Origin: a virus | Lineage: Duplodnaviria; Heunggongvirae; Uroviricota; Caudoviricetes; Straboviridae | Reading direction: 5' to 3' (one strand) | Virus record (IMG/VR): IMGVR_UViG_2974656882_000001 | Coordinates: 64,001 to 128,000 of that record | Length of the DNA stretch: 64,000 nucleotides | Part shown: in pieces, positions 9,074 to 32,647 of the stretch | Position numbering within the stretch: the stretch's first letter is position 1 | Layout of the letters: every line of letters starts with the position of its first letter | Notes under the pieces: generated by a model | What the model was told of the DNA's origin: nothing | Database searches by the model: none | The model's input: the letters and a program-made list of their open reading frames with translations, nothing else | Translations under genes and position numbers: made by a program

Positions 9074-9086
9074 AGTTTTATTTGCA

Positions 9087-9251
9087 ATGACGGAATTCTG
9101 GTTCTTCGGAATTCCTATTGCAGGTGGATTTGCTGCATTGGTATACATCGCTACCTCTGACCAAACTTCTGCATTATTTACATTCTGTTGGGCGGCATTT
9201 ATATATTTCTTGCTTGACTTTTCCGATACAAAGGAAAAGATTCAAAAATGA
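9087..9251 (+). CDS. Small two-TM membrane protein, 54 aa
   Basis: MTEFWFFGIPIAGGFAALVYIAT...LFTFCWAAFIYFLLDF; weak SD. Confidence 0.5.
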   Translation: MTEFWFFGIPIAGGFAALVYIATSDQTSALFTFCWAAFIYFLLDFSDTKEKIQK

Positions 9252-9254
9252 TTT

Positions 9255-9989
9255 CTATATAAATTTGAATTCAGGAAATTTATCGCTATTACATCTAGAT
9301 CTTACCACAGAGATACTAAGATCTAGTTTTTCTGCAGCCTCTCTGCAACAGCTATAGTGAATTCCATAAATTGACACAGGTTTTCTATTTCCTGGGTCTT
9401 TGCCTTTATGTATTTTTGATAGTTTTTGTTTAAACTCATCTGAATGATCTTTACCGTAAAACGGGTTGCGTGTACCGACCATATTACGTCTTAACTGGCC
9501 TTTGCTCATGTTTTCACGTATTACTTGCGCTTTATCCAAGGAGTATACCTCTTCCAGTTTTTTACCTTTAAGGCAATTAGGGCGTCCAAATTTCGACTTG
9601 CGTTCGTCGGGACTTAACTTACAATTATTTGTGTGAATTGATTTAGCAATTTTAGCTAAAATTTTCTCTTTATTTGGGTGAGCAGATAGTGTGTCACCAA
9701 ATGATGCATCGGCAATATTATATCCATTTAGCTTACTGTTCATTTCAGAAATCCAGAAATTTTCTCGTTCTATGATTAAATCTTTAGAATATTCAAGCTC
9801 TTCAAGTATAGATGGAATAAATACCTTTTTGCCGTACTTATTATATGAACGTTGCAGTTTTATACTTGAATGAGTACCATTTTCCAAGTCTTTGAAATGA
9901 CGCGCCCATCTTTTGCTAAAGTCTTTAGCACTACCGACATAGCATTTATTTGTAATAATGTTGGTGATTTTGTAGATTCCAGAAGCCAT
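9255..9989 (-). mobile_element. Free-standing GIY-YIG homing endonuclease, I-TevI homolog, 244 aa
   Basis: SGIYKI..YVGSAKDFSKRWARHFKDLENGTHSSIKLQRSYNK..IIERENFWI..GYNIADASFGD matches recalled I-TevI; NUMOD3 and HTH C-terminus. Confidence 0.93.
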
Positions 9990-10015
9990 AATAGGTTATC
10001 CATTCAATTATATGC

Positions 10016-10023
10016 TATTTATA
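10016..10023 (-). promoter_or_regulatory. Late promoter for the GIY-YIG gene
   Basis: Perfect TATAAATA on the - strand, 26 nt upstream of the ATG. Confidence 0.8.
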
Positions 10024-10071
10024 TAATAGTATTACAATATACACATACAGTTTCAACGAGGAAATCAGTTA

Positions 10072-12483
10072 GTGAAAGTTATTAAGTCAAGTGGTATTGC
10101 ACAAGAATTCGATTCATCTAAAATTATTCAAGTTTTAGAATGGTCCTGTGAAAGTACCCAAATCAACCCGTATGAATTATTTGAACGGTGCCGTCCATTT
10201 TTTAAAGATGGTATGTCGACGACAGAAATTCAACGTGCTATTGTAAAGGTTGCAGCAGATTCTATTAGTGCAGAAGAATCTGATTACCAATATGTTGCAT
10301 CTAACCTGGCATTGTTTGGACTTCGTAAAGATGTCTTTGGACAATTTGATCCACCTAAATTATTTGATCATGTTAAAAGTGGTGTCGAGCAAGGAGTATA
10401 TGATCCTGAATTGCTCACAAAATGGACAGCTGACGATTATGAAATTTTAGAAAGTATTCTTGATCATGACCGTGATTTTAATTTTACGTATGCAGGTGCA
10501 ATGCAAGTAAAAGATAAGTATCTTGTAAAAGATCGATCTTCTGGTAAAATTTACGAAACGCCACAATTTATGTTCATGCTTATTGGCATGTGTTTGCATC
10601 AAGATGAGCCTCAATCTCTTCGTTTCAAATATGTAAAAGATTTTTATGATGCAGCGTCATTAAAACAAATTTCTTTGCCGACACCAATTCTTGCAGGTGT
10701 TCGTACACCGACACGCCAATTTAGTTCATGTGTATTAATTGAATCCGGAGATAGCCTAGACTCAATTACAGAAAGTACATCAGCTATTGTCAAATATGTT
10801 TCTAAACGTGCTGGCATTGGTATTGCTGGCGGTGCAATTCGTGCTGAAGGTTCTAAGATTGGACCAGGCGAAGTCAAGCATACCGGTGTAACTCCATTCT
10901 GGAAACTTAAAAATGCTGCTGTTCACTCATGTTCACAAGGTGGCATTCGTAAAGGTTCTGCTACTTGCTATTGGCCAATTTGGCACCTTGAATGCGAGAA
11001 CTTGATGGTCCTCAAAAACAATAAGGGTATTGAAGAAAACCGTATCCGTCACATGGACTATGGCATTCAAATTAATAATCTTATGATTGAGCGTTATTTG
11101 AATAACGACTATGTTACGTTGTTTAGCCCAGATGTATTAGACGGCAAATTATATGATGCATATTTCAGAGATGAAGATCTATTCCGCGAACTATATGAAA
11201 ATTTAGAAAAAGATTCTAATGTTCGTAAAAAACGTATTAAAGCAGCGGAATTGTTCATGGGGCTCTTCATGACTGAACGAGCAAACACTGCTCGTTTATA
11301 TCCATCTCATGTTGACAACACAAACAATTACGGTCCTTGGATTCGTCAAATTGCACCTGTAAAAATGTCTAATCTGTGCGCAGAAATTGCTTTACACACT
11401 GTTGCATTAGGTACATACAAGGATCAACGTATTGCAGTTGCATCTGGAGACATTGTTAAGTTCATCGAAACATATGGAACCAACCAAGTTGTGCTGCCTA
11501 CAAATTCTGAGCTGTTCAAACGAGTAGATCCAGATTATGAATCGTCTAAAGGTGAAATTGCATTCAATATTCAAGAGGACCTTGGTGAAATCGCTCTTTG
11601 TACTTTAAGTGCATGGGTCCTTGATAATTTCGACTGGAAAAATCAAGAAGAAGTCAACCGCATTGGCATGGTAATGGTACGTGCACTTGATAACTTATTA
11701 GATTATCAAGACTATCCTCATAAAAATGCATTGAAGGCAAAAGAATATCGTTCTTTAGGCATTGGTGTTACAAACTTTGCAGCATGGTTAGCTTCAAATG
11801 CATGTTCATATGAAGACGGCAATGAAATTACTCATGAGTTATTTGAACGTCTTCAATACGCACTAATCAAAGCCTCTATTGATTTAGCCAAAGAGAAAGG
11901 CCCTTCCCCACAATTATGGAAGACCAAATATGGGCGTGGTGAATTACCTATTGATTGGTATTGCAAAAATGTCGATGAATTAGTAGCGCCAAATTATGTT
12001 TTAGACTGGGAAGGCCTACGTATTGACCTTAAAGAATTTGGTATGCGTAACGTAACGTTATCTGCTCAGATGCCTTGTGAGTCTTCAAGTCAAGTGTCTA
12101 ATTCTACCAATGGCATTGAAAAACCTCTTAAACCTGTTTCATATAAGCAGTCTAAAGATGGTTCATTTAACCAAGTAGTTCCAAACTATGAAGCCAATCA
12201 GCTGTTCTATGACTTCGCATGGGAATCTGCAGCTCGGGATGGCAACAAAGGTTACTTAACACAAATGGCTATTGAGCAAAAATGGACAGATCAAGCGATT
12301 TCGATCAATACATATTACGTGCCTGTTAGTTATGAAAACGGTAAAGTTCCTATGTCACAAATGATGGATGATATGTTATTCTGTTTCTATTACGGAAACA
12401 AAAACATGTATTATCACAACACAGACGATGGCTCTGGTGCAGATGATTCGAATTCTGCCGATTGTGATGCATGCAAACTCTAA
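10072..12483 (+). CDS. nrdA: Class Ia ribonucleotide reductase alpha subunit
   Basis: GAGG SD plus GTG; ATP cone; QFSSCV, SNLCAE, ALCTLS, C-terminal CDACKL. Confidence 0.97.
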   Translation: MKVIKSSGIAQEFDSSKIIQVLEWSCESTQINPYELFERCRPFFKDGMSTTEIQRAIVKVAADSISAEESDYQYVASNLALFGLRKDVFGQFDPPKLFDHVKSGVEQGVYDPELLTKWTADDYEILESILDHDRDFNFTYAGAMQVKDKYLVKDRSSGKIYETPQFMFMLIGMCLHQDEPQSLRFKYVKDFYDAASLKQISLPTPILAGVRTPTRQFSSCVLIESGDSLDSITESTSAIVKYVSKRAGIGIAGGAIRAEGSKIGPGEVKHTGVTPFWKLKNAAVHSCSQGGIRKGSATCYWPIWHLECENLMVLKNNKGIEENRIRHMDYGIQINNLMIERYLNNDYVTLFSPDVLDGKLYDAYFRDEDLFRELYENLEKDSNVRKKRIKAAELFMGLFMTERANTARLYPSHVDNTNNYGPWIRQIAPVKMSNLCAEIALHTVALGTYKDQRIAVASGDIVKFIETYGTNQVVLPTNSELFKRVDPDYESSKGEIAFNIQEDLGEIALCTLSAWVLDNFDWKNQEEVNRIGMVMVRALDNLLDYQDYPHKNALKAKEYRSLGIGVTNFAAWLASNACSYEDGNEITHELFERLQYALIKASIDLAKEKGPSPQLWKTKYGRGELPIDWYCKNVDELVAPNYVLDWEGLRIDLKEFGMRNVTLSAQMPCESSSQVSNSTNGIEKPLKPVSYKQSKDGSFNQVVPNYEANQLFYDFAWESAARDGNKGYLTQMAIEQKWTDQAISINTYYVPVSYENGKVPMSQMMDDMLFCFYYGNKNMYYHNTDDGSGADDSNSADCDACKL

Positions 12484-12503
12484 TTTGTGGTAAAATATTA
12501 ACC

Positions 12504-12523
12504 TGGGCCTCGTAAGAGGTCCA
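12504..12523 (+). terminator. nrdA-nrdB intergenic hairpin
   Basis: TGGGCCTC-GTAA-GAGGTCCA; no T tail, so terminator function is uncertain. Confidence 0.4.
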
Positions 12524-12543
12524 CATATTCAAGGAATTTTTAA

Positions 12544-13695
12544 ATGAGCAATACTGTTTTTAATCAATTAGCAAATCATATGCTTCAGCCGATGTTCTTT
12601 GGTGAGGACACTGGCGTAGCACGCTACGAAGAAGTTAAACATGAAAAATTTGAAGAGCTAACAACAAAGCAACTCTCGTTTTTCTGGCGTCCTGAAGAGG
12701 TAAATCTAACCACCGACAAAGCCCAATTTGATAAACTCTGGGAGTCCGGCAGAGGTTACCTGCAAGAAATCTTTACAAACAATTTAGGTTATCAAATCCT
12801 TATGGATTCGGTACAAGGAAGAGCACCTGCGATTGTTTTAGCATCAATATGTTCTGATGTTGCATTAGAAACATGGATTATGACATGGACATTCAGTGAA
12901 ACAATTCACTCTCGTTCATATACTCATATTATTCGTAATTTGTACTCTGATCCTTCTAAAATCTTTGACGGTGTTGTTGCTAATAAAGAAATTATGGCTC
13001 GTGCTACAGCAATTTGTGAACGATATGACAAATTACACGAATTAGTAATTTTATATCAAGCTGACAAAATTCGTGATCAAGTACGCCCAGGCCAGTTACG
13101 TGAAGTTAAGAAAGCATTATACATGTGTCTTCATGCAATCAATGCTCTTGAAGCTATTCGGTTTTATGTTTCATTCATCTCAACTTGGAACTTCTTTGAA
13201 AACATGAAAATCATGGAAGGTAACATGAAAATCATGCAATTCATTGCACGAGATGAGAACTTGCACCACCAAGGTACACGTTATATTCTTCAACAAATGA
13301 ATAAAGGCATCGATGGTACAGAATGGCGCGAAATTGCGCTTGAATGTAAAGATGACGCAGAACAGTTATTCATTGAAGTTCGCAATCAAGAACGTGCTTG
13401 GGCTTCATATGTTTATCGTAATGGGTGCCCAGATGGCTTAACCGTTGAATTAGTTTGGGATTTCATTGACTACCAATTAGTGCCGGCGATGAATAATGTA
13501 GGACTAACTTGTCCTATCGAACGCCCTAAACGTCACCCTCTGCCTTGGGTAAACAAATACTTAATGGCATCGTCTGTCCAAGTTGCAAAACAAGAGGCAG
13601 AATTAAGTTCTTACTTAATTTCACAAATTGACAATGATGTTGATGATAATATTATTGCACAATTTAGAGAGAAATATTTACCTAAGCGTAAGTAA
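12544..13695 (+). CDS. nrdB: Ribonucleotide reductase beta subunit, intronless
   Basis: FFWRPEEV, SETIHSRSY, ALEAIRFYVSF, ARDENLH. Confidence 0.97.
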   Translation: MSNTVFNQLANHMLQPMFFGEDTGVARYEEVKHEKFEELTTKQLSFFWRPEEVNLTTDKAQFDKLWESGRGYLQEIFTNNLGYQILMDSVQGRAPAIVLASICSDVALETWIMTWTFSETIHSRSYTHIIRNLYSDPSKIFDGVVANKEIMARATAICERYDKLHELVILYQADKIRDQVRPGQLREVKKALYMCLHAINALEAIRFYVSFISTWNFFENMKIMEGNMKIMQFIARDENLHHQGTRYILQQMNKGIDGTEWREIALECKDDAEQLFIEVRNQERAWASYVYRNGCPDGLTVELVWDFIDYQLVPAMNNVGLTCPIERPKRHPLPWVNKYLMASSVQVAKQEAELSSYLISQIDNDVDDNIIAQFREKYLPKRK

Positions 13696-13698
13696 TCC

Positions 13699-13783
13699 TA
13701 GTTACAAAAATATTAATAGATTTGTAACTATGGCACTCTAAGTTATTGATATTTGAAGTAATTTTCTAGAGTGCCACTTCAAA
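13699..13783. other. Two adjacent 10-bp inverted repeats with possible pseudoknot
   Basis: TAGTTACAAA/TTTGTAACTA; TGGCACTCTA/TAGAGTGCCA; loop TTTGAAGT pairs with ACTTCAAA 13776-83. Confidence 0.6.
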
Positions 13784-13787
13784 AAGT

Positions 13788-13795
13788 TATAAATA
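13788..13795 (+). promoter_or_regulatory. Late promoter with no downstream CDS before the terminator
   Basis: Perfect TATAAATA. Confidence 0.75.
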
Positions 13796-13796
13796 A

Positions 13797-13895
13797 CAAC
13801 GTTATTTGTTATTACGTTGGTTATCTGGTCCGGGAACCGGACCAGTCTGCTGCAGATGCATTTGATTATAAGGAGCTTAGTGCTCCTTTCTTTTT
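13797..13895 (+). ncRNA. Candidate ~100-nt late small RNA
   Basis: Bounded by late promoter and terminator; hairpins CAACGT/ACGTTG and CTGGTCCGG-GAA-CCGGACCAG; no SD-led ORF. Confidence 0.55.
13870..13895 (+). terminator. Intrinsic terminator
   Basis: AAGGAGC-TTAGT-GCTCCTT-TCTTTTT. Confidence 0.8.
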
Positions 13896-13937
13896 GATTA
13901 AAGAAAATAGAAACGTGGCTTTGCCACTACACAACAG

Positions 13938-13963
13938 TGCTTTTTATTTTCTAATAGTATAAT
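13938..13963 (+). promoter_or_regulatory. Middle promoter for rnlA
   Basis: TGCTTTT, 13 nt, TATAAT. Confidence 0.6.
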
Positions 13964-13987
13964 GGCACTATAAACTAGGAGATTACC

Positions 13988-15136
13988 ATGGACAAACTTT
14001 TCAAAAATCTAATGGCGTTAGTTGATCCAGAAGATTTCTCAAAATTCTTTTATAAAGACTTCGTTACGCCAATGGGCACTTCAGTGCGAATCTTTTCATA
14101 TAACTATGCATCATACACCGATTGGCTAAACGAAGATGCACTAGAAGCACGTGGCATCATGTTTGAAATGGACGGTGAGACTCCGGTTCGTATTATGTCA
14201 CGCCCAATGGAAAAATTCTTTAACTTAGATGAAACACCATTTACACAAAATCTTGATTTATCTAAAATTGCATATGGCATGGTAAAGGAAGACGGATCAT
14301 TAGTATCAACATACACTGATCACGGATATCTACGTACTAAATCAAAGGCATCAATTTTCTCTACACAAGCAATTGAAGCACAAATGTTATTGTCTAATAT
14401 TGACCATGTCGATTTGCATGATCGCTGTCTCGAACTTGCCAATGAAGGGTATACTTGTAATTTTGAATATGTTTCACCGGGCAATCGTATTGTAATTGCT
14501 TACCCTAAACGAGCGTTAGTACTACTAAACGTACGCAATAATGAAACAGGCAAATATGTCCCATATTCAGAATTGAAACGTGATCCTGTGCTTCGCAAAT
14601 ATTTAGTAGAAGGCTTCCCACTAGCCGAAGGTTCGGATCGTGCTGCAATGGTTGAAGAAATTCGTGCTTCTGAAAATATTGAAGGCTATGTGTTCGTAAT
14701 GGAAGACGGACTCACATTTAAATTGAAGACTGCATGGTATTCAAATCTTCATCGTGTTAAAGATACAATCAATAACGATAAAGACTTATTTGGTGTAATT
14801 GTAGCCGGCGGTTCAGATGATTTGAAATCATTATTTGAAGATGACTACTCGCGATCAAAAATCGAAGCATATGAAAAAATATTCTTTGATTATTTGCGAG
14901 ACTCTTTAAAGGAATTATTAGCGTATCATAAAGAATTTGCAGGTTCTGATCGTAAAACATTTGCAATTAATTCGCAAGCAAAATTCCAGGCGCTTGGGAA
15001 GCCAGAATTATTTGGAATTTCTATGGCAAACTTCAGTGGCACAATGTCACAAGACGATTTAGTCAAAGAAATTAATAAAGTCTTTATGAAAAATACCGAT
15101 CGATATAAACTCAGCGAGTTTTCTACGGAGTCATAA
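13988..15136 (+). CDS. rnlA: RNA ligase 1
   Basis: LEARGIMFE, RPMEKFFNL, adenylation motif KEDGSL, IEGYV..FKLKT. Confidence 0.95.
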   Translation: MDKLFKNLMALVDPEDFSKFFYKDFVTPMGTSVRIFSYNYASYTDWLNEDALEARGIMFEMDGETPVRIMSRPMEKFFNLDETPFTQNLDLSKIAYGMVKEDGSLVSTYTDHGYLRTKSKASIFSTQAIEAQMLLSNIDHVDLHDRCLELANEGYTCNFEYVSPGNRIVIAYPKRALVLLNVRNNETGKYVPYSELKRDPVLRKYLVEGFPLAEGSDRAAMVEEIRASENIEGYVFVMEDGLTFKLKTAWYSNLHRVKDTINNDKDLFGVIVAGGSDDLKSLFEDDYSRSKIEAYEKIFFDYLRDSLKELLAYHKEFAGSDRKTFAINSQAKFQALGKPELFGISMANFSGTMSQDDLVKEINKVFMKNTDRYKLSEFSTES

Positions 15137-15372
15137 TGATTGGCATAGTAATACTACTCATTGTTTTATTAGGTGCTCTATTTCGTAGAAATCGCCAACA
15201 AGCTAGGGCGATTTCTAAATTGAAATATGATGTGTTCTGCGGGAAGCTTAAATTTTATCGAGCTAAAAATGAGTTAAATCGCATCAAAAACCCTTTGCCG
15301 GATTTGTCATCTCTTAAGAAATTAGAGTTCATAGGATTTGATAAAATCGCATTAAATTTTTTCAATAGGTAG
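15136..15372 (+). CDS. Small protein with N-terminal TM and basic tail, 78 aa
   Basis: MIGIVILLIVLLGALFRRNR; GGAG SD; TAATG coupling. Confidence 0.65.
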   Translation: MIGIVILLIVLLGALFRRNRQQARAISKLKYDVFCGKLKFYRAKNELNRIKNPLPDLSSLKKLEFIGFDKIALNFFNR

Positions 15373-15414
15373 TTTACTTTTGATAAGACTATTGATATAA
15401 TGGTCTTATCAAAA
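15372..15414 (+). promoter_or_regulatory. Early promoter for alc with a 12-bp inverted repeat around the -10 box
   Basis: GTTTACT, 17 nt, TATAAT; arms TTTTGATAAGAC 15378-89 and GTCTTATCAAAA 15403-14. Confidence 0.75.
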
Positions 15415-15438
15415 ATATTGTAGAATGAGGAAATTAAT

Positions 15439-15924
15439 ATGAAACACACCGTACATACATTAACTGAAGATGTCTTAGTTGAAATGTTTGGTGATTCCAA
15501 GGATTGGTGTAGTGTTTTTAAAGACGGCAAACGCGTTGGATATTTTGCTGATCTTCGCAAAGAAGTGTTAAAACGACAAACTCTTGCAGATAAAAAGGAA
15601 CGTAAAAAATTCCATGACAGTTTAATGCTTAATGACAATATTAGTGAAACAAAACGCTTCTTAGAATCTCGTTTGAAAAACGCACATGTTTTCATCAATG
15701 AAACTCAGCCTAATGTACATTTAAATGGATCAAAATTTTACATTATTTGCGGAGCAACTCCTAAAATTCGCATGGGTGTAACTCACAAAGAATTAGACTT
15801 TGATCAAATTGTTCAACTAGCCGAACGTGAGGCTCGCCAATCGTCTTCTAAGCGTCATGCATTATTTAGTAACCTTGATCTTGAAGAAGCTGCACAATTG
15901 ATCGAATTACTAGCAGGTAAATAA
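15439..15924 (+). CDS. alc: Alc, host transcription shut-off factor
   Basis: SVFKDGKRVGY and VFINETQPNVHLNG match recalled T4 Alc; synteny after rnlA. Confidence 0.88.
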   Translation: MKHTVHTLTEDVLVEMFGDSKDWCSVFKDGKRVGYFADLRKEVLKRQTLADKKERKKFHDSLMLNDNISETKRFLESRLKNAHVFINETQPNVHLNGSKFYIICGATPKIRMGVTHKELDFDQIVQLAEREARQSSSKRHALFSNLDLEEAAQLIELLAGK

Positions 15925-15925
15925 C

Positions 15926-16105
15926 ATGTATGTATTACTTTTGACTATTACTACATTTGGTTGGTTCACTGATGATAAGACTACTCTTACTATTGATGGA
16001 TTCAAGAGCCAACAGATTTGCCAAATAGCAGGCGAACAATTTAAAGATGAACATACAAAGAAATTTGTATCTAAAGCCACTTATACCTGTGTGAGAAAAT
16101 CATGA
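15926..16105 (+). CDS. Hypothetical protein, 59 aa; below the ORF-track cutoff
   Basis: MYVLLLTITTFGWFTDDKTTLTIDGFKSQQICQIAG...TYTCVRKS; AGGT SD; ATGA overlap with next ORF. Confidence 0.6.
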   Translation: MYVLLLTITTFGWFTDDKTTLTIDGFKSQQICQIAGEQFKDEHTKKFVSKATYTCVRKS

Positions 16106-16422
16106 AAGTAAATCAAGTACTACGCACATATCAAGGATTCTGGAATCCTGTGAACAATCATTCAGTTGTAAGTGAAGATTATTCTGCGCTATATAAATTA
16201 TGTGATGCAGCAGCATACAACGGGCGCTCATATTTAATTCTACGGCAATCTGAATTACCAATGTACATGTTTGGTGATGTAGAGACTTTAGTTACATTTA
16301 CACAAACTGAACAGGAAATCTGTGACTTTAGACGACGTTTATTGATTAACATGTTTTCTAATAATGGCTTCAAAATTGCAGTCGATGATGAATACAAACA
16401 ACTTAAAATATGGTGGGTGTAA
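16102..16422 (+). CDS. Hypothetical protein, 106 aa
   Basis: Coupled ORF in the alc-pseT interval. Confidence 0.7.
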   Translation: MKVNQVLRTYQGFWNPVNNHSVVSEDYSALYKLCDAAAYNGRSYLILRQSELPMYMFGDVETLVTFTQTEQEICDFRRRLLINMFSNNGFKIAVDDEYKQLKIWWV

Positions 16423-16724
16423 TGATTACTGCGGAAGAACGTGCTAAACTAACAAAAGATGCACAAACCTCTATTAAACTAGAACTAACTAAATTGACTA
16501 AACTTGTACTTGAAGAAATTGATAAGTCGATTACTCATCGCACTGAAAAAGGCGAATGGCATGTACGAGTCAATGCAATAATTATTGCACGAAATATCAT
16601 CGAGCTTCATCGCTCAGCTCTGACCCCAAATGAAGTGCAAAATTCAGTAATTGCCGCACTTCGTGAAATCGGATATGATGCATACATAACTCAAGCCCTT
16701 TTACACATTGAATGGAGCCGATAA
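16422..16724 (+). CDS. Hypothetical protein, 100 aa
   Basis: TAATG coupling on both sides. Confidence 0.7.
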   Translation: MITAEERAKLTKDAQTSIKLELTKLTKLVLEEIDKSITHRTEKGEWHVRVNAIIIARNIIELHRSALTPNEVQNSVIAALREIGYDAYITQALLHIEWSR

Positions 16725-17644
16725 TGGACAAGAAAGTAGTTTTAACTGTAGGCGCGCCTGGTTCTGGCAAATCAACTTGGGCCTTAGAACAAGTTGAAAA
16801 GTCTCGAAAGGGTAATAAAACTATCACATTAACGCGTGATGATATGCGAGCACTATTATTTGGTGGTAAATACAAATACTCACGTGAAAATGAAGCACTA
16901 GTAACTCAATCCTTAATGCACACTTTAAAACTTGCGTTAGCAGACAAAGTTACAGATCGCATTATTATCGCAGATACAAACCTAAATGAATCAACACGCA
17001 AGACAATCTATAATTTCTTGATTAAAGAACAAGAGCACCATGACGGCAAAATTACATATGAAGAAAAACCATTTGATGAATCATGGGTAGAACTCGAAAA
17101 ACGTAACTTGACTCGTGGGAACAAAGCAGTTCCAAAACCAGTACTTCGTGACATGTATTTACGAATGCAAAAGTACTTAGGAAAGCATCGCCAATATGTG
17201 CCAAATCCTGAATTACCAAAGGCCGTCATTTTTGATCTTGATGGCACATTAGCTAATAATGATCATCGTGATGCATTTGCATACTGGAAACTCGATAAAG
17301 ATACTCCAGTAGAATTCGTGGTTAATATTCTTAAAATGTACAAACAAAACGGCTATAAAATTCTCTGTGTATCTGGGCGTAATGCTGGTACTAAAGATGA
17401 TAATCTAAAGTATTATAACATGACGGCAGATTGGTTGTCGTATAATGCAATCCCATGGGACAACTTGTACATGCGAGCTCACGATGATCGTCGCAAAGAT
17501 GATATTACTAAGGAAGAAATCTTCTGGACTCATATTGCGGACAACTATAATGTTGAATGCGCTTTTGACGACCGCGATCGCGTCATTGAACTTTGGCGAC
17601 GAATTGGTGTAAATGCAGCTCAAGTGCAATTCGGGGAGTTTTGA
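16724..17644 (+). CDS. pseT: Polynucleotide 5'-kinase / 3'-phosphatase
   Basis: GAPGSGKST P-loop; IFDLDGT HAD motif; AFDDRDRV. Confidence 0.95.
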   Translation: MDKKVVLTVGAPGSGKSTWALEQVEKSRKGNKTITLTRDDMRALLFGGKYKYSRENEALVTQSLMHTLKLALADKVTDRIIIADTNLNESTRKTIYNFLIKEQEHHDGKITYEEKPFDESWVELEKRNLTRGNKAVPKPVLRDMYLRMQKYLGKHRQYVPNPELPKAVIFDLDGTLANNDHRDAFAYWKLDKDTPVEFVVNILKMYKQNGYKILCVSGRNAGTKDDNLKYYNMTADWLSYNAIPWDNLYMRAHDDRRKDDITKEEIFWTHIADNYNVECAFDDRDRVIELWRRIGVNAAQVQFGEF

Positions 17645-17645
17645 T

Positions 17646-18176
17646 ATGCGTTATGCAGCATGTATACTTATTGAAAATAATGGAAAATTCCTTGCGGTTA
17701 GTCGCAAGGATGACCTAACAGATTTTGGATTGCCTGGCGGCAAAATCGACTTAGGCGAAACAATTGTTGAAGGTGCAAAACGTGAATGCCTTGAAGAGAC
17801 TGGCATCTGGCCTACAGTTCTTGACTTAAGTGATCCATATGTTGCAATTGATGGCGATTTCGAAGTTAGCACATTTCATGCAATTCCATCAAGCATGAAA
17901 GAACCTTACCAGCCTTTAGCTGAATCTGAAACAGGTTTAGTAGAATGGGTTACTGCTGATAAGCTAATGGAAGGCACATTTGGCAAATATAATCGCGATG
18001 CTTTAATTCATTTCGGGTATATTAAAAAATATCAAATTTGGTATACTCATGACACTAAACTAAAATATCCACCACAAGATGAATTTTATGCAACTTCAGC
18101 AGTTGAAGCAATCAAGAAATTTCTTGTAGCTTCTGCTGGACAATATTACGTACACCACGTTGAGGAAATACAATGA
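17646..18176 (+). CDS. Nudix hydrolase
   Basis: Nudix box GGKIDLGETIVEGAKRECLEETG; GGAG SD. Confidence 0.88.
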   Translation: MRYAACILIENNGKFLAVSRKDDLTDFGLPGGKIDLGETIVEGAKRECLEETGIWPTVLDLSDPYVAIDGDFEVSTFHAIPSSMKEPYQPLAESETGLVEWVTADKLMEGTFGKYNRDALIHFGYIKKYQIWYTHDTKLKYPPQDEFYATSAVEAIKKFLVASAGQYYVHHVEEIQ

Positions 18177-18487
18177 ACCTTTATCAAAAAATCAAAGACA
18201 TTCATGTTATGCATAACGCTATTATGCCAAAGGAAGAGGCAAGCAAAATTGAAGTGTTGCTTGAAGAAGACGGGCGATGTAAAAAATATATGCAAGAACA
18301 TAATTGTAATGCATTTTTATTTGTGACACCAGGTTTTTCTTTCGGTGGACGAATCTTTTTTGATCGCGATGAACGATTTGCACCTGGTGATGTAGTTCGA
18401 ACTTCATTAGTAAAATCAATTGATAGTATTGATGGCGAATTTAGCGTAGTACAAACTCGCAATACTCGATACATTTGTTTAGGCTAA
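18173..18487 (+). CDS. Hypothetical protein, 104 aa
   Basis: GAGGA SD; ATGA overlap. Confidence 0.7.
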   Translation: MNLYQKIKDIHVMHNAIMPKEEASKIEVLLEEDGRCKKYMQEHNCNAFLFVTPGFSFGGRIFFDRDERFAPGDVVRTSLVKSIDSIDGEFSVVQTRNTRYICLG

Positions 18488-18489
18488 AC

Positions 18490-18515
18490 TGCTATAGGGA
18501 TATTTGAAATATAAT
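18490..18515 (+). promoter_or_regulatory. Middle promoter for cd
   Basis: TGCTATA, 13 nt, TATAAT. Confidence 0.5.
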
Positions 18516-18538
18516 AACCTTATACTCGAGGTAATGAT

Positions 18539-19090
18539 ATGAAAGCTACTACGTTTATGCAAATCGCTTATTTAGTTTCACAAGAATCTAAATGTGTATC
18601 TTGGAAAGTTGGTGCAGTTATTGCCAAAAATGGACGTATTATTTCAACTGGATATAACGGCTCACCTGCCGGAGGAGTAAATTGCTGTGATCATGCCGAA
18701 CAAGAAGGATGGACAACTAACCGATACAATCCGGTCCCTCCACACAACAACACAGTCTTACTTAAAAGTGAATGTCGTGTCTCGCACAGCACCTGGTCTG
18801 CAATTAATGAGATTCATGCAGAACTTAATGCAATCTTATACGCAGCAAAAAATGGAACGTCAATTGACGGTGCGACAATGTACGTCACTCTTAGCCCGTG
18901 TCCTGATTGCGCAAAAGCTATTGCCAACAGTGGCATTAAACAACTGGTCTACTCAGAGACATATGATCGCAACATCGAAGGTTGGGAAAAAATACTCGAA
19001 GCTGCAGGAATTAAAGTCTTTCAAATCAACAAGCAAGCGTTAAAGAATCTTGATTGGACAAATATCATAAATTACGGAGGTTTACAATGA
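18539..19090 (+). CDS. cd: dCMP deaminase
   Basis: SKCVSWKVGAVI, EIHAELNAI, SPCPDCAKAI. Confidence 0.96.
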   Translation: MKATTFMQIAYLVSQESKCVSWKVGAVIAKNGRIISTGYNGSPAGGVNCCDHAEQEGWTTNRYNPVPPHNNTVLLKSECRVSHSTWSAINEIHAELNAILYAAKNGTSIDGATMYVTLSPCPDCAKAIANSGIKQLVYSETYDRNIEGWEKILEAAGIKVFQINKQALKNLDWTNIINYGGLQ

Positions 19091-26082: not shown

Positions 26083-26961
26083 TTATGCCAATCTTGATGT
26101 AAAGTTCATATTTGTATCCAATTGAGTTTTTTGCAAGCCTATTGCTGAATTTTCCATCCATTCTTTTGCGGCATTCAGACTAATTGCACCGACTTGCATA
26201 GTTCTATATGCATAAGTTACATCAAATGTAGTTATTTGGTTATTATCTTCATACGATAACTGTGGACCACCTACTACCATAGGGATACATCCAGTAAACA
26301 TATATGCAGTGTGTGGATATCCGTCACGCCCGTGCAAATTGATTTGAATGTCAGCTTCTACATCAATTGGTAACCCACGAAGCCCAGTAATAGGATCTTC
26401 TACTGCATTAACCCAATCTATCATGGCACGATAGTTTGCAGACTTTGAATCCATTCTAAATGTAATTACAAGTGGCTCAAAGTCTCGGCCTGTGATTTTT
26501 ACACTTGGAGCATTATGCTGGCGATCCATTTCATAATTTAGATGATTGTCAGGTATTTTACACGATTGAACTAATAAGCCTGATGTAGGAAAGGCCATAT
26601 CAAAATATTCGAGTAAATATGTACCTACATTAAGTTCACCTAAAAGTGACTGAACTACACGATTTGTCATCGCACCCATAAGTACTTTAGATACACCTGC
26701 CTTTCGAATGACCTTTTGTGTCCCGATAGTTATGATTGAAGTGATAGCATTTTGTATATTTTCATTGGTGATTCCTAGTGCATCTAACGTAGAAGCAATA
26801 CTATCGTCTCTTCGGTTTGCAATCTGTCCAAGATACTGTTGCGACTTAGATGAAGGTCTAGTCGCAAAATGCATAGAGAACATGTTGGTCCGCTGGAAAT
26901 CATGATTTGCAATTTGACTATTAAACTCGTCTAATGTCAATGCAATAGCAGTATTTTTCAT
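26083..26961 (-). CDS. 54: Baseplate-tail tube initiator gp54
   Basis: DFQRTNMFS, P..SYE.NNQITTFDVTYAYR. Confidence 0.92.
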   Translation of the reverse strand: MKNTAIALTLDEFNSQIANHDFQRTNMFSMHFATRPSSKSQQYLGQIANRRDDSIASTLDALGITNENIQNAITSIITIGTQKVIRKAGVSKVLMGAMTNRVVQSLLGELNVGTYLLEYFDMAFPTSGLLVQSCKIPDNHLNYEMDRQHNAPSVKITGRDFEPLVITFRMDSKSANYRAMIDWVNAVEDPITGLRGLPIDVEADIQINLHGRDGYPHTAYMFTGCIPMVVGGPQLSYEDNNQITTFDVTYAYRTMQVGAISLNAAKEWMENSAIGLQKTQLDTNMNFTSRLA

Positions 26962-28049
26962 AGAACATCTTCTCCATAAATTGATGCACGGTTTTGAGTT
27001 AAGATTTCCCTGAAGGTAACTTCAAGAATGAATGTAGATGGCATATTTGGTGCAATCGATAGACCATTGAAATTCCCATCAGGGGCTTTATCAAAACGAA
27101 TACTCGATATTTGAGCCGGGCCAAATATATCTGCGATGCCGTCATACTTTGATTGAGTGCCAAAGTTTTGTATAAACCATACTGTAGGATTTGATACAAC
27201 AATCACGTTTGACAAAAACGAAGTAACCGATTCCATAAAGGTTTTCTGAGTCTTTGCTCCAACTTCTTCATTTACTTTATTGATAATTGTAGTTTTGTAC
27301 CAATCATCAATTCGTTTTTTGACGTCTTTTGCAAATTGAGAATTTCCAGTAATACCATATGAGAAAAAGTTAAAAATCTCATATATTTTAAGAATTTGTG
27401 TCAAATCCTCTGGTGTACGTGGAGTAAATTCCCAGGTGTATGTTTTTGTTCTGTTTTCTGCACCGGCATACATAGAACGTGCTGTATTATAAATTTGCTC
27501 GCCACTGTCAGCCATAATACCTTGTGTGACGGATTCAATAGCCCCAAATACGGCAGTAGATGCCATGTTCGACAGAATGCCTGTAATTGAACCATTGCCA
27601 CGTGTAACAAGCGATTCTCCTACATCATTAAACTTATGATTAGTCATATCTGAGTCGCTTTTTGAACGTGGCAACAATAAGTTTGCTACAGGTTTTTTTG
27701 CTAAATCTGATTCGGTTGATGTGGATCCACCACGGACACTCATTACTGCCGTGCTAATCTTTTCAATAGTTTTACTAATGTTATATTGTTTCTGCATAGC
27801 AGTACGCATATCTCGTAAGTTTGGTGTTACTCGTGAAGAATACTCGTATGCGGTAAACAATAATCCATTTTGATACAGTTGATCGAATTCTCTAGAATCC
27901 CCAGTGCTATCATATCCAGAAGAACGTTCAGCAGGATATTGTGCGGTTAATGTTTTTACTTGAGTCTCTTTAGACTTTTGGCTTTGGCCGGCCGAAATGA
28001 TCGACCCAGCCTTTGCCAAAAAATTAGTATCTAATTCTTTAAAATTCAT
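26958..28049 (-). CDS. 48: Baseplate tail tube cap gp48
   Basis: AQYPAERSSG, LLPRSKSD, FGPAQI..IRFDK; 363 aa. Confidence 0.92.
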   Translation of the reverse strand: MNFKELDTNFLAKAGSIISAGQSQKSKETQVKTLTAQYPAERSSGYDSTGDSREFDQLYQNGLLFTAYEYSSRVTPNLRDMRTAMQKQYNISKTIEKISTAVMSVRGGSTSTESDLAKKPVANLLLPRSKSDSDMTNHKFNDVGESLVTRGNGSITGILSNMASTAVFGAIESVTQGIMADSGEQIYNTARSMYAGAENRTKTYTWEFTPRTPEDLTQILKIYEIFNFFSYGITGNSQFAKDVKKRIDDWYKTTIINKVNEEVGAKTQKTFMESVTSFLSNVIVVSNPTVWFIQNFGTQSKYDGIADIFGPAQISSIRFDKAPDGNFNGLSIAPNMPSTFILEVTFREILTQNRASIYGEDVL

Positions 28050-28058
28050 TTTAGTACC

Positions 28059-29765
28059 TTAATTGACGCCTGTAGCTCTAAATACGCCTGGAGCTCTAGT
28101 TCCAGTTATTGGAGTTTGGACGTTATAACTCTTATTGGTTTTAACAATGTTTGTTTGAACATTAGCAGTAGATGTTGAAGCTTTGGTTTGTGCTGCAGCC
28201 TTTTGAGCTTCTGCAACTTTAATGTTCTGGACAAGTTGAGTATCTTTAGTATTAGCAGATTTATCAGGTTTAACTGCAGTATTTGTGCTAGACTTCATTT
28301 TATAATTATCTAATTGTGACTGCAATTCAGCTTTGACACTTGGGACTAGCGCTAATCCTGGACTATTAATATACTGTTGTGCTTCTTTCTTGTATTTATC
28401 GGCTTCTGCAACTTGTTTTGCGTCATTTGGATTGACGTTATCTGCAATATTTTTAAATCTTGCTATAGATTCTCTTGCTTCATTTGATGCCGCAATTGCC
28501 TTTATCTGATCTTCATGGCTTAAACCTCTACGAGCCGCTTGATCTTTCTTTTCTGCTTGGATTTGCGAATACTCATCCTTTGAAATTAAACCTAAGCTTT
28601 TTCTCCAAGAGTCTGGTAAAAATGATGTCTTACCACGTTGAGTAGGAGTGAGCCCATCCGATTTTTCACGTCTGAGTTGCTCTTCGGCTAGTTTTCTCTG
28701 ATTTTCAGGAGACAATCTATTATTTGTCATGTTTTGGTAATTTTGCAAGCCTTCAGCTTCAATAGCTTTTGCTGCTTTAGAGAACCCTAATTTATCCAAA
28801 ATAGTTGAGATTAATTTTGTAATTACTCTATCAAGTATTCCACTAAGTGTCTTGATTCCATCTATGAACGCAGTGCCTATTGCTGAAGCTAATGCAGGCC
28901 AATCGCCGGATTCCCATGCATTTCTAATGCCGGTCAAATCGCCTTTCATGCCTTCAAATGAATCTTTCATGTCAGAGAAATATGATGACCATTCTTTAAA
29001 CCCGTCCCACCATTTCGAAAAAGTTTCTGTCCACTCTTCGAATTTTTTCATGATTTTGTCGCCCCAGACCTGCCATGCAATTTTTAGCAAGTCGATACCA
29101 AGAATTATCGCAGCAATAGCTAGAGCAATCTTAGCCGCACCTACGGCTTGAGATACCGTAAATTTAAATAGCATCCCAGAAATTTTATCCGCGATACTTG
29201 TAGACTTTTTAAATCCTTCTACTATTGCACCCTTGACCGAACTTATAGCGTTTACTACTAATGCAGGCCCAGCATTAGGTGCACCATCTACTTTAGGGCC
29301 ACCTGATAATAAATCTTCTGATGGTTTTTTCTCTTTTGGAGCAATTTCAATAGGCGCAGGTGCAACTTGTTCTTTGGCTTCAGGCTTTAATTTATTTGCT
29401 AACACCTCTGATGTTGAATCTGCATTTGCAATAGGAGCGTCAGCTACAGGTATGGATGCTTCATATTTCTGCTTAAGACGATCACTTAGTATGCTAAGTT
29501 TTGATGAAATTTCAACAGCTGAATTAGCTATTTCTTGTAGTTGTTGAGTTTGATAATCCTGAAGCCCTAATGATAGTTTTGATACTTCTACTTGAGCTGA
29601 AGTATTATTTTCAATTCCTGAAATACTCGCGCTATCAATTGCCTCTGGTTCAGGCACTGTATCAAAATTCTCATCATTTGCCGGAGCGTCTTCAGAAGGC
29701 TTAGGAGCTCGTCTGAGACTGGTTTGCTCAGACGGAAGTTTATTTTGAGAAAACGTATTATTCAC
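28059..29765 (-). CDS. 29: Tape measure / hub protein gp29
   Basis: MLFKFTVSQA; hydrophobic central segment; C-terminal TPITGTRAPGVF. Confidence 0.88.
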   Translation of the reverse strand: MNNTFSQNKLPSEQTSLRRAPKPSEDAPANDENFDTVPEPEAIDSASISGIENNTSAQVEVSKLSLGLQDYQTQQLQEIANSAVEISSKLSILSDRLKQKYEASIPVADAPIANADSTSEVLANKLKPEAKEQVAPAPIEIAPKEKKPSEDLLSGGPKVDGAPNAGPALVVNAISSVKGAIVEGFKKSTSIADKISGMLFKFTVSQAVGAAKIALAIAAIILGIDLLKIAWQVWGDKIMKKFEEWTETFSKWWDGFKEWSSYFSDMKDSFEGMKGDLTGIRNAWESGDWPALASAIGTAFIDGIKTLSGILDRVITKLISTILDKLGFSKAAKAIEAEGLQNYQNMTNNRLSPENQRKLAEEQLRREKSDGLTPTQRGKTSFLPDSWRKSLGLISKDEYSQIQAEKKDQAARRGLSHEDQIKAIAASNEARESIARFKNIADNVNPNDAKQVAEADKYKKEAQQYINSPGLALVPSVKAELQSQLDNYKMKSSTNTAVKPDKSANTKDTQLVQNIKVAEAQKAAAQTKASTSTANVQTNIVKTNKSYNVQTPITGTRAPGVFRATGVN

Positions 29766-30309
29766 TTAATAGCTCCACTATTTTATACAATCCCTTTATT
29801 TCAGTACCATTAGGGCCCCTTATTGCGACTGTATTTGTTATCATTTCTCCCCATCTATGCACAAACGCCGGCATTTGCATAAAATCCGGAGTATCAATTT
29901 TCTTGCCCTTGTGCTTCACACTTACACAACATTGATTTAGAAGAATATCTAATGGCCCTTTAAGCAATTCAAACGATGGCGATCTAAATTTAAATTCATA
30001 CTCACCATAAGAAAACTTTAATTGTTGGCAAATATAAACATCATCAAGCTTATATACAAATCCATCTTTTTCAACAGATTGTTTTAATCTGCCATTGTAC
30101 TCTAATAGATGAAGTGTTAATATATCTCGTTCAGCTAAAGACAAATTAGGCTGAATATAATTTAATAACACTTTCATAGTTTCTTCATGGTTTGAAGCGT
30201 CTTTTATGAGCATTCTATGTTTTAGTCCAAGCTTAGGTACTTTTATTTGCTTACCATTAACTTCAATAACTTTAGTTTTTGGAACTAAATCTAATTTAAT
30301 ATTTCCCAT
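29758..30309 (-). CDS. 28: Baseplate hub distal subunit gp28
   Basis: KVPKLGLKH and PDFMQMPAFVHRW. Confidence 0.88.
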   Translation of the reverse strand: MGNIKLDLVPKTKVIEVNGKQIKVPKLGLKHRMLIKDASNHEETMKVLLNYIQPNLSLAERDILTLHLLEYNGRLKQSVEKDGFVYKLDDVYICQQLKFSYGEYEFKFRSPSFELLKGPLDILLNQCCVSVKHKGKKIDTPDFMQMPAFVHRWGEMITNTVAIRGPNGTEIKGLYKIVELLSE

Positions 30310-30311
30310 TT

Positions 30312-31895
30312 TTATCCTCCTGCACTATACCCATAGCGTGCTCTATATACTGTATATGTTAAATTATCACTTCTATTTGGCTGAACTCCTGATTGGATAA
30401 AATCAGAGACCCATTGTGTACCTGTGAAAATACAAACATGCCCATATTTCTGTCCAAGGCGTGTATTTGTTCTTTGGAAAACTGCGATATCGCCTTTCTT
30501 TACATTTTTTACGTTTTGACCGACTGCAATCCACCCCATTTGGACTAGACGCGGTGGCATTTCATTTGCATTCCCTAGGCCACCAGCAAAGAAATTTTCA
30601 AGTTGTGCAGCTTGGAGTGCTTTACGAACATATAACGCACATTCACCTGTGGATTTACGCCCTTGTGCGTTCTTTGTGACAACTTCGGCGAGTTTATCTA
30701 AATCCCATTGTGCACCTTTCTTGTCGGCAGATGCTTCAGGCTGAACGGTGTCTGAAGGAGGTGTAATTGTCTCAATTTCATTTTTTATTTTTTCGATATT
30801 TACTGGAACTAAATCCTTCCCGTTTGTAAAAACATAAAGATGAGTTTCAGATGAGTTGTTTGTAATAACATGAACTACTTCATCGATGTAGAATTCAGTT
30901 TTAAATTGTCCCTTCTTGTCACCGAATATGATTTTTTGGAGCGGCGTCAAAGTAAAATCACCAACAACCTTACATGTTGCATATCCATCATATTGAGCCA
31001 TTGTTAGCAATCGAAATGCTTCTTCATATCCATTACGGTATGTCATTTCCGAATATCCGCCTGAACGAGATACAACAACAGAATTAGTTCCTTCACCGAT
31101 TGAAATTCGTTGAATTTCTTTATCGTTAAATGAATGACTATACACTGTAACATTTTCTAATGGATTTCTGACATTTCTGTTAGTTTTAGCTAGCCATGTA
31201 AAGTCATAAGCCAATTGCTCTTTCATGTTTGCTATATACGCACCAATTTGTGCTGGATCACCGACTACCATGACTCTTGGCTTCTGATCAATCATGAATT
31301 TGTAATCAGAAATATTAATGCCTGTGAAATCTTCCCATACAAATGGATGAGTTTCAGATTCAACAGAAAGGCCAACTTCTCTTACATATTCGAAATAATC
31401 GGTAATCGTGCTTACCCAAGCCACTCGAGGAACATATACGTTAAGACCTTTAACTTTAGGCGCAAGCTGTGCTTTATTGTTATAAATCGATTTTATCATT
31501 GTCTCAATAGATTCAGTAGCATTAGCAAAAAATGCTCGACTAAATTTAACATCTTCGACAACATGCAATGGTCTTAAATTAAATGCAAGTATATTGTCTC
31601 CCTTTTCATCAACTGATACTGCAGTATCGTTGCAGCCATAGATACGTGTAATAACATCTTTGGAATTTGCATTTGATAGCGATATTTGAATTATTTGTTC
31701 ACCATTGAGTTTAGCATGCAAATTCTTGGAGTCATAAAACTGGAGAACTCCTTCATTGATACCATATAACCCATCTCTTAATGTGAGAGTAGTAAATGTG
31801 GCAGCTAATTCAATAAATCTATTTTCTTTCCAAGCATCATAATCTTCATATAGTTTTATGCTTACGTTAGGATACCCGGGTTTTTGCATTGTCAT
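30312..31895 (-). CDS. 27: Baseplate hub gp27 with C-terminal CHAP/NlpC-P60-like hydrolase, 527 aa
   Basis: QKPGYPNVSIKLY and SEMTYRNGYEEA match gp27; extra ~135 aa with GECALYVRKAL, GDIAVF, GHVCIF, QWVSDF. Confidence 0.9.
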   Translation of the reverse strand: MTMQKPGYPNVSIKLYEDYDAWKENRFIELAATFTTLTLRDGLYGINEGVLQFYDSKNLHAKLNGEQIIQISLSNANSKDVITRIYGCNDTAVSVDEKGDNILAFNLRPLHVVEDVKFSRAFFANATESIETMIKSIYNNKAQLAPKVKGLNVYVPRVAWVSTITDYFEYVREVGLSVESETHPFVWEDFTGINISDYKFMIDQKPRVMVVGDPAQIGAYIANMKEQLAYDFTWLAKTNRNVRNPLENVTVYSHSFNDKEIQRISIGEGTNSVVVSRSGGYSEMTYRNGYEEAFRLLTMAQYDGYATCKVVGDFTLTPLQKIIFGDKKGQFKTEFYIDEVVHVITNNSSETHLYVFTNGKDLVPVNIEKIKNEIETITPPSDTVQPEASADKKGAQWDLDKLAEVVTKNAQGRKSTGECALYVRKALQAAQLENFFAGGLGNANEMPPRLVQMGWIAVGQNVKNVKKGDIAVFQRTNTRLGQKYGHVCIFTGTQWVSDFIQSGVQPNRSDNLTYTVYRARYGYSAGG

Positions 31896-32647
31896 TGTTT
31901 ACTATCCTTTTCTATCATTGAAAGAGCAATACTTCTTTCAGCCGGCAGCATATTCATTATAGAATTCCAATCATAATTATTTTTGATCAAAATGTTGTTG
32001 ATCTCATAAAACGGAAATACTTCATCTGGATTTATTAAAAGTCTAAAAATCGATGCCAAGTCGTCAAATACTATAACATGCTTTTCACAACACGATATAT
32101 TCATTTCAAAGTGCAATGGCTTCAGCTTTTTGACGATATGCTCAAACTTTTCAAAATCTAACATCTCGATAATAGTGTCTTGAGTGTCAGTATCTAAGTC
32201 TTCCCATTTGTACTCTTCGCCGTTATATTTTACATTGTCTATATTTTCAAGAACAAGCTTTGCATTGTCAGAATAAACTTTGTCCGGAAATTTGAACTCT
32301 AATTCTGTAGTATCATCTAATTTAACTAAAGGCGCAACTAATTCATCTTGAGATAAATTAAATAATCGTTTTTGTGTTTTGCCGCAAGTCGGACACTCGA
32401 AAATAATAGGAACTTTAGTTTTGCCAACAGACCCAGTAAACACATTTAGAAATAAGTATTGTTGCCAGGATTTTGGATATTCACCGAAATAATCTTCAGC
32501 TAACTCGTTAACTATTTCTAATTGTTCTGATGCATCTTTTGTCATCATATCATTTCGAACTAATAAGAAATCTCTATAGTCAGCTACGTTAAACGGCTTG
32601 AATCGATGAATGCCATCAGGCAATCTACATCTGATAATATTAGCCAT
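31892..32647 (-). CDS. 51: Baseplate hub assembly protein gp51
   Basis: MANIIRCRLPDGIHRFKPFNVADYRDFLLVRND. Confidence 0.92.
   Translation of the reverse strand: MANIIRCRLPDGIHRFKPFNVADYRDFLLVRNDMMTKDASEQLEIVNELAEDYFGEYPKSWQQYLFLNVFTGSVGKTKVPIIFECPTCGKTQKRLFNLSQDELVAPLVKLDDTTELEFKFPDKVYSDNAKLVLENIDNVKYNGEEYKWEDLDTDTQDTIIEMLDFEKFEHIVKKLKPLHFEMNISCCEKHVIVFDDLASIFRLLINPDEVFPFYEINNILIKNNYDWNSIMNMLPAERSIALSMIEKDSKQ

Follow-up and report, generated by a model that had tools for sequence, protein, structure and literature searches.

Fusions of a baseplate hub protein to a peptidoglycan-cleaving enzyme are an already known design. In the hub of Staphylococcus phage 812/K (Kayvirus), trimeric gp27-type channel domains I to IV are followed by a C-terminal CHAP "cleaver" (PMC13433997; PDB 9EUF), which has a Cys699-His759-Glu777 triad; this cleaver shows activity in zymograms, and a weld protein caps it (PMC13433997). 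Here we describe one more instance of this design, namely the 527-amino-acid (aa) product of gene 27 of an Acinetobacter T4-type phage, in which a complete gp27 hub core is joined by a flexible tether to a predicted papain-fold peptidoglycan peptidase module. The gene lies in a stretch of 64,000 nucleotides (here termed the window) that corresponds to positions 64001 to 128000 of the complete 168,223-bp phage record IMGVR_UViG_2974656882_000001. This region shares 99% identity with Acinetobacter phage vB_AbaM_PhT2 and its relatives, which are T4-type myoviruses (Straboviridae/Twarogvirinae).

The Acinetobacter and Kayvirus hubs are analogous in design rather than orthologous, the former being an independent instance. 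The phage 812 hub comprises 808 aa (the position at which the cleaver construct ends; the modeled chain, 9euf_E, has 722 residues) and includes a saposin-like clamp domain, whereas the Acinetobacter fusion has only a disordered linker of ~25 residues and no clamp. The triads also differ, being Cys-His-Glu in phage 812 as against Cys, His, and a candidate Ser in the Acinetobacter module, which is predicted to belong to the Tae3 lineage. Further, phage 812 infects a Gram-positive host, its active site is masked by the dedicated weld "lid," and its partner spike carries a teichoic acid-degrading domain, whereas the partner in the Acinetobacter phage is a lysozyme-bearing gp5.

At the level of the enzyme, a parallel is offered by Tae3 (PDB 4HZ9 and 4HZB), whose catalytic Cys and His and WxSDF motif align with the phage module and which, too, is delivered by a contractile device into the Gram-negative periplasm. 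However, Tae3 is a free chain of 119 residues (4hz9_A) that leaves the cell through a type VI secretion system (T6SS) and has Tai3 as its immunity protein, whereas the phage module is fused to a structural protein. We found no T6SS context in the 168-kb phage genome and no immunity gene beside gene 27, which is flanked by genes 51 and 28; therefore, the module is a homolog of the Tae3 catalytic domain and not a T6SS effector. Tae3-family enzymes cut meso-diaminopimelate (mDAP)-D-Ala cross-links (PMC3695027), a specificity that would extend to the phage module only by analogy.

The T4 gp27-gp5 complex (PDB 1K28 and 5IV5) shares with the present phage the gp27 core, an orthologous gp5, and the gene order 51-27-28-29-48, but T4 gp27 lacks an enzymatic domain, and the gp5 lysozyme is the sole muralytic activity of the T4 complex. 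An earlier reading made from the DNA alone (here termed the sequence-only reading) had given T4 gp27 a length of 391 aa, in agreement with chain D of 1K28, and had compared the fusion with evolved VgrG proteins. The latter comparison is a loose one: an extra domain is indeed placed on a hub, but the single gp27-gp5 chain of VgrG is missing, gp5 being a separate gene and the extra domain following gp27. The fusion is hence not an evolved VgrG, and its true architectural precedent is the phage 812/K hub. GenBank notes of about 2010 for the phages 133, Ac42, and Acj9 describe gp27 as "fused to (conserved) Acinetobacter hypothetical protein," and precomputed Pfam tags list CHAP on some of the fusion members; the searchable literature yielded no publication that describes this fused domain in T4-like phages of Acinetobacter.

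Architecture of the gp27-peptidase fusion

We propose, with a probability of roughly 75%, that this T4-type trimeric hub carries a tethered papain-fold peptidoglycan peptidase that acts beside the gp5 lysozyme at the tube tip. Within this analysis, the proposal is based on the architecture of the protein, its predicted fold, the conservation of the catalytic residues, purifying selection, a tree consistent with a single origin, and the retention of the gp5 lysozyme; from these we infer that virions probably contain the uncleaved module and that it is probably catalytically active, with a given bond specificity and with a position in the baseplate in which it may be masked before triggering. 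The parts of the protein, all encoded on the minus strand, are as follows (coordinates are those of the window; pLDDT, predicted local distance difference test; dN/dS, ratio of nonsynonymous to synonymous substitution rates).

30312..31895, minus strand: gene 27, encoding the 527-aa gp27-peptidase fusion, with the stop codon at 30312-30314 (open reading frame [ORF] list and translation)
30795..31886, minus strand: gp27 hub core, residues 4-367, with four channel-forming domains (Pfam, alignment to 1K28_D, AlphaFold2)
30714..30794, minus strand: linker, residues 368-394, EKIKNEIETITPPSDTVQPEASADKKG (low pLDDT, sequence divergence)
30315..30713, minus strand: predicted Tae3-like/CHAP papain-fold peptidoglycan peptidase module, residues 395-527, 133 aa (Pfam, phmmer, AlphaFold2, Foldseek, dN/dS)
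30639..30641, minus strand: codon of the predicted nucleophile Cys419 (aligns with Cys23 of Tae3)
30438..30440, minus strand: codon of the predicted general base His486 (aligns with His81 of Tae3)
30393..30407, minus strand: Ser497-Asp498-Phe-Ile-Gln501 (the WVSDFxQ motif), candidate third catalytic and oxyanion/orienting residues (conservation)

The translation agrees with the length of 527 aa given by the sequence-only reading, and the four motifs that it had quoted are found at residues 417-427 (GECALYVRKAL), 468-473 (GDIAVF), 485-490 (GHVCIF), and 494-501 (QWVSDFIQ), with the codons of the Cys and His exactly where it had placed them; the span that it assigned to the enzyme, 30315-30710, corresponds to residues 396-527, i.e., 132 aa. 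That reading had also considered that a missed stop might separate the domain from gp27. Both a missed stop and a sequencing artifact are ruled out, because the same open frame recurs in ~70 Acinetobacter phage records that are independent of one another, as well as in 34 protein clusters. The gp27-peptidase fusion is thus a real, conserved feature. The survey of gp27 lengths that the sequence-only reading had suggested, made on homologs clustered at 90% identity, recovered two length classes, one of 343 to 406 aa (86 clusters) and the other of 518 to 534 aa (34 clusters).

The N-terminal part is a complete T4 gp27 core. Both Pfam domains are full length and lie above their curated cutoffs: PF09097 spans residues 4-198 (E = 2e-76; 256.8 bits against a cutoff of 27; profile positions 1-196 of 196) and PF09096 spans residues 201-373 (E = 6e-70; 235.1 bits against 25; profile positions 1-173 of 173). 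Residues 3-381 align to residues 4-383 of T4 gp27 (PDB 1K28 chain D, 391 aa) with E = 1e-149, and the protein as a whole, in which PF09097, PF09096, and CHAP are the Pfam matches, matches the baseplate hub family phrog_1135 with E = 7e-181. In a full-length AlphaFold2 model built from 34 fusion homologs, the core is mostly confident, as are residues ~395-527, and residues 368-385 have a pLDDT of <50.

This dip in confidence between confident flanks indicates that a flexible tether of ~25 residues joins two folded units. The "P/T/S-rich linker" of the sequence-only reading corresponds to TITPPSDTVQPEASADKKG (residues 376-394); it is indeed a linker, but its P/T/S content is only moderate (42%). 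Its identity to the equivalents in phages 133 and Ac42 is 19 to 37%, with insertions and deletions, and its dN/dS reaches ~1 in distant pairs, making it the sole freely varying part of the protein. No in-frame ATG from which a free module might be translated is present within the linker or shortly behind it (GTG and TTG starts were not checked). A disordered, fast-evolving linker would also suit a scenario in which an active module works outside the mature injection device, either after cleavage at the linker during assembly or as a late auxiliary lysin; the cleavage of T4 gp5 after assembly provides a precedent within the same complex (PMC11054660). This scenario appears quite unlikely to us: the gp27 fusion lacks both a signal peptide and a membrane segment and therefore, until lysis, could get to the wall only by way of the virion, the phage genome encodes a separate endolysin of the T4 e type, and in other phages the module is embedded inside tail proteins.

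For the C-terminal module, the first clue to its affinities comes from Pfam, with the module alone matching CHAP (PF05257) at E = 2.6e-6 (28.3 bits against a cutoff of 26) in addition to a weak match to Tae4. In a phmmer search against the PDB, its only significant match was Tae3 of Ralstonia pickettii (4HZ9_A; E = 3e-7). The AlphaFold2 model of the module alone, made with a 57-sequence alignment, has a pLDDT of 94.4 and a predicted template modeling (TM) score of 0.90 and displays a papain-like alpha+beta fold; its top Foldseek match is again 4hz9_A (TM score of 0.84 normalized to the target; root mean square deviation of 2.3 Å), and the phage 812 hub chain 9euf_E is also among the matches. 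The homology points specifically to Tae3 in preference to the remaining Tae families and to CHAP families. In the models, C419 opens the helix 419-430 and H486 opens the strand 486-490. What the sequence-only reading had put forward, namely that the protein is a gp27, that its added domain has a CHAP/NlpC-P60 (papain-like) fold, and that a Cys and a His form the catalytic pair, is thus borne out by Pfam, PDB, AlphaFold2, Foldseek, and alignment evidence. Taken together, sequence and model suggest that the module is probably a cysteine peptidoglycan peptidase of the Tae3/CHAP lineage and apparently an active one.

Catalytic residues and the companion lysozyme

The catalytic residues of Tae3 are C23 and H81 (PMC11796386), and the enzyme has been described as having a Cys-His-Ser triad (PMC10318531). 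The WVSDF motif of the phage module aligns with WISDF of Tae3, thereby matching S497, the candidate third catalytic residue, to the Ser of that motif. An exhaustive search of 1.84 billion representatives recovered 883 module homologs at E <= 0.001. In an alignment of 57 of these, the Cys, the Gly-His, the Asp (D498), and the Gln (Q501) are invariant and the Ser (S497) is nearly so, while the 34 gp27-fusion clusters show no variation at any of the five positions (C419, H486, S497, D498, and Q501). Across seven phages, at unsaturated synonymous sites, dN/dS is 0.06 to 0.19 for the module and 0.03 to 0.18 for the gp27 core; thus, the module is under purifying selection in the same range as the structural core.

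These patterns bear on the idea that the module is noncatalytic or mainly a peptidoglycan-binding anchor for the tube tip, for which RipD and the weld "clip" of phage 812 could serve as models. Inactive NlpC/P60 or CHAP domains have lost their catalytic residues, whereas here none of the 34 fusion clusters deviates at these residues and the wider module family hardly does, making a mere anchor very unlikely.

The domain context of the homologs is overwhelmingly cell wall related, with fusions to SLT, GH19, Phage_lysozyme2, VgrG3-type muramidase, pesticin-type lysozyme, LysM, SH3, and PG_binding_1 domains, and 52 of 101 homologs match CHAP at E <= 0.001. A protease or amidase that acts on a protein target, either in the processing of the hub or tape measure during assembly or on a host envelope protein, might nevertheless be considered. 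The module adjoins gp29 and gp5, and T4 gp5 is itself proteolytically processed. Moreover, the papain-like fold serves many protease activities (PMC10318531). Nonetheless, the close structural and sequence relatives are all cell wall hydrolases, and the homologs are fused almost only to cell wall-binding or glycan-cutting domains, for which reason we view a protein substrate as highly improbable and favor peptidoglycan.

Among the same 101 homologs, which are 150 to 1,000 aa long, we observed a type IV secretion system (T4SS) pilin domain (PF18895) in nine, two of which also match TrbC/VirB2; a CHAP sublineage of the module is thus also attached to conjugation/T4SS pilins. Psychrobacter plasmids, too, encode "CHAP domain-containing" homologs of the module.

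The companion enzyme, gp5, is encoded by a separate gene for a protein of 595 aa at record coordinates 132234-134021, outside the window. It is orthologous to T4 gp5, with an OB (oligonucleotide/oligosaccharide-binding) fold (E = 3e-41), a lysozyme domain, and a beta-helix, and aligns to T4 gp5 with E = 5e-160. It keeps Glu182, Asp191, and Thr197, which align with E11, D20, and T26 of T4 lysozyme. The question raised by the sequence-only reading, whether gp5 keeps its lysozyme, can hence be answered in the affirmative: the domain is intact and its catalytic Glu, Asp, and Thr are retained. Therefore, the gp27 module is an addition to and not a replacement of the gp5 lysozyme, and the proposal of a second muralytic activity on the trimeric hub emerges as the best reading of the locus. 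We also considered that a second enzyme might allow escape from Spackle (Sp), the periplasmic inhibitor of the gp5 lysozyme in T4; this finds no support, as no match to Sp or phrog_1586 was detected in the whole genome, a search that sequence-unrelated analogs would escape.

In T4, the gp5.4-gp5-gp27 tube tip crosses the outer membrane and the gp5 lysozyme digests the wall locally (PMC11054660); gp27 itself gets as far as the periplasm and the inner membrane, and it tolerates tags at its C terminus (PMC11054660). By analogy with T4 gp27, the gp27 part of the fusion would form a trimer at the tail tip, and each virion would consequently bear three copies of the module, each on its disordered tether of ~25 residues. 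Sheath contraction would, as established for T4, drive gp5-gp27 at the tube tip through the outer membrane into the periplasm. There, the gp5 lysozyme would cut the glycan strands, while the tethered modules, traveling with the hub, would cut peptide stems or cross-links, the likeliest bond on the Tae3 analogy being the mDAP-D-Ala 4-3 cross-link. Together, the two enzymes might open the sacculus locally for the tube, in a pairing of muramidase and endopeptidase like that seen in many tail lysins.

Several points weigh against this proposal. The CHAP match is marginal, falling to 25.1 bits, under the cutoff of 26, when the full-length protein is searched. Because Tae3 is only ~30% identical to the module, it is a weak guide to the bond that is cut. 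The searchable literature offers no enzymatic, proteomic, or structural data for the Acinetobacter fusion phages, and no virion proteomics was found in it for fHyAci03 or DLP1/2. Finally, three extra domains of 15 kDa would have to find room in a T4-type baseplate, the linker may be cleaved during assembly, and the enzyme may be masked.

Distribution, origin, and gene neighborhood

In a tree of the gp27 core, rooted only at the midpoint, the 34 long forms constitute one clade (Shimodaira-Hasegawa-like approximate likelihood ratio test support of 100) that is nested among plain gp27 proteins, and no loss of the fusion was seen among the 34 sampled clusters. This is consistent with a single acquisition of the module by gp27. 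The ~70 records with the fusion include only Acinetobacter phages among the named carriers, such as 133, Ac42, Acj61, Acj9, and ZZ1. A 167,038-bp contig in a species-genome collection, CAVJPU010000002.1, also carries a gp27-peptidase fusion (78% identity); most likely it is the genome of a T4-like phage that was placed in a bacterial bin. Two pattern scans of 185,579 species genomes matched only this mis-binned phage contig, which, the method being insensitive, is weak evidence against a bacterial origin.

Outside gp27, the module has its nearest relatives (45 to 56% identity) within giant tail or virion proteins of jumbo phages, 1,000 to 2,900 aa in length, where they form internal domains. 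One of these, a 1,488-aa protein (10001-14467 of the extracted locus) on a 281-kb metagenomic jumbo-phage contig (ERZ28622509), combines a VgrG3-type muramidase (PF21277) with the module, which is 56% identical in its cluster representative. Its gene lies shortly downstream of a baseplate gene of the T4 gp26/gp51 type, from which two small ORFs separate it, and no gp27 Pfam match was found among its listed neighboring genes. Another, a protein of 2,862 aa (10001-18589 of the extracted locus) on the 37.5-kb contig SRR23126128, is tail-fiber-like at its N terminus (phrog_3201), contains a GH19 domain, and bears the module close to its C terminus; a phiKZ-type prohead protease (PF20034) is encoded a few genes away. 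A Tae3-like module of ~35% identity is also contained in the 1,159-aa protein CPT_0185 of Campylobacter phage CP220 (3769-7248 of the extracted locus), whose gene lies directly upstream of a gp48-like tube cap gene, i.e., in the slot of gp29 (tape measure/hub). CPT_0185 is annotated as a "hypothetical phage membrane protein," its PHROGs family (phrog_38472) is labeled "endolysin," and proteins of this type are carried by 15 Campylobacter phage records. These giants of jumbo and Campylobacter phages thus resemble the Acinetobacter hub in their hub or tape-measure neighborhoods and in pairing the module with a glycosidase (VgrG3-type muramidase or GH19); however, they are uncharacterized, and in them the module is internal to a huge polypeptide rather than C-terminal to gp27.

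A stand-alone chromosomal homolog of 169 aa (34% identity) was recovered from Acinetobacter baumannii VB31459 (CP035931.1) by a tblastn search of a plasmid collection. It retains the Cys, the His, and the SD and is encoded at 8803-9312 of the extracted locus between dusA and a LysR regulator, a housekeeping context with no T6SS or prophage genes nearby. It is probably what the GenBank notes of 2010 refer to as "Acinetobacter hypothetical protein." As annotated, this protein has no obvious signal peptide, and a second copy is present elsewhere in CP035931.1. At 34% identity, it is more distant from the module than the phage giants are, and a recent capture from the host is hence not favored. 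The derivation from a bacterial amidase or effector, which the sequence-only reading had raised as a possibility, fares no better for the same reason, Tae3 being at ~30%. With the nearest relatives in the phage giants and both Tae3 and the host protein farther away, the module looks like a recurrent phage tail-lysin cassette, as judged from sequence relationships, rather than a recently captured bacterial effector.

The genes around the fusion, identified by Pfam and PHROG matches, form the canonical T4 hub cluster 51-27-28-29-48, an order that is likewise annotated in phages 133, Ac42, Acj61, Acj9, ZZ1, and Lazarus; genes 26 and 25 lie upstream of the cluster and are divergent.

31892..32647, minus strand: gene 51, hub assembly catalyst (PF12322 T4_baseplate, E = 8e-57; phrog_150/phrog_634)
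29758..30309, minus strand: gene 28, distal hub subunit (PF11110, E = 9e-37)
28059..29765, minus strand: gene 29, tape measure/hub (PF25671 T4_Tape_measure, E = 1e-49; phrog_1283)
26958..28049, minus strand: gene 48, tail tube cap (PF11091, E = 4e-133)

The stop of gene 51 overlaps the start of gene 27, as can be seen in the sequence of the junction. At the other end, the final gp27 codons, GGA GGA TAA, supply the Shine-Dalgarno sequence GGAGGA of gene 28 (30309-30320; junction GGAGGATAAAAATG), the ATG of which follows 5 nucleotides past it. The C-terminal Gly-Gly of the module is constrained by this translational coupling, because its two GGA codons are the Shine-Dalgarno sequence of gene 28.

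Implications for Acinetobacter phages

Why a hub should carry a second enzyme invites comparison with the host wall. Acinetobacter and Campylobacter both figure in a list of genera that O-acetylate their peptidoglycan, in which E. coli does not appear (PMC6783866), raising the possibility that the endopeptidase on the hub adapts the phages to hosts whose walls withstand lysozyme-type muramidases. This link is a two-point correlation only, the module being on gp27 in the case of Acinetobacter and on the gp29-slot protein in that of Campylobacter, and we regard the adaptation as unlikely. If it were true, a peptidase indifferent to the O-acetylation of N-acetylmuramic acid would be the enzyme that lets the tube through, the gp5 lysozyme would be partly redundant, and how the wall is modified would help to determine how efficiently the phage infects.

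Conceptually, the fusion adds little, as enzymes fused to hubs are an established finding and the sequences became publicly available in about 2010. For the phages themselves, it means that, within one host genus, T4-type phages have equipped their hub permanently with a second, chemically different, predicted wall-cutting enzyme, a solution that they share with the hubs of the Gram-positive Kayvirus phages and that they arrived at independently, via a domain homologous to a T6SS toxin. It thereby offers a concrete entry point into why the gp5 lysozyme alone does not suffice for certain hosts. The 133-aa module is also a compact candidate for a Gram-negative peptidoglycan endopeptidase, and it comes from phages that are already used against A. 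baumannii.

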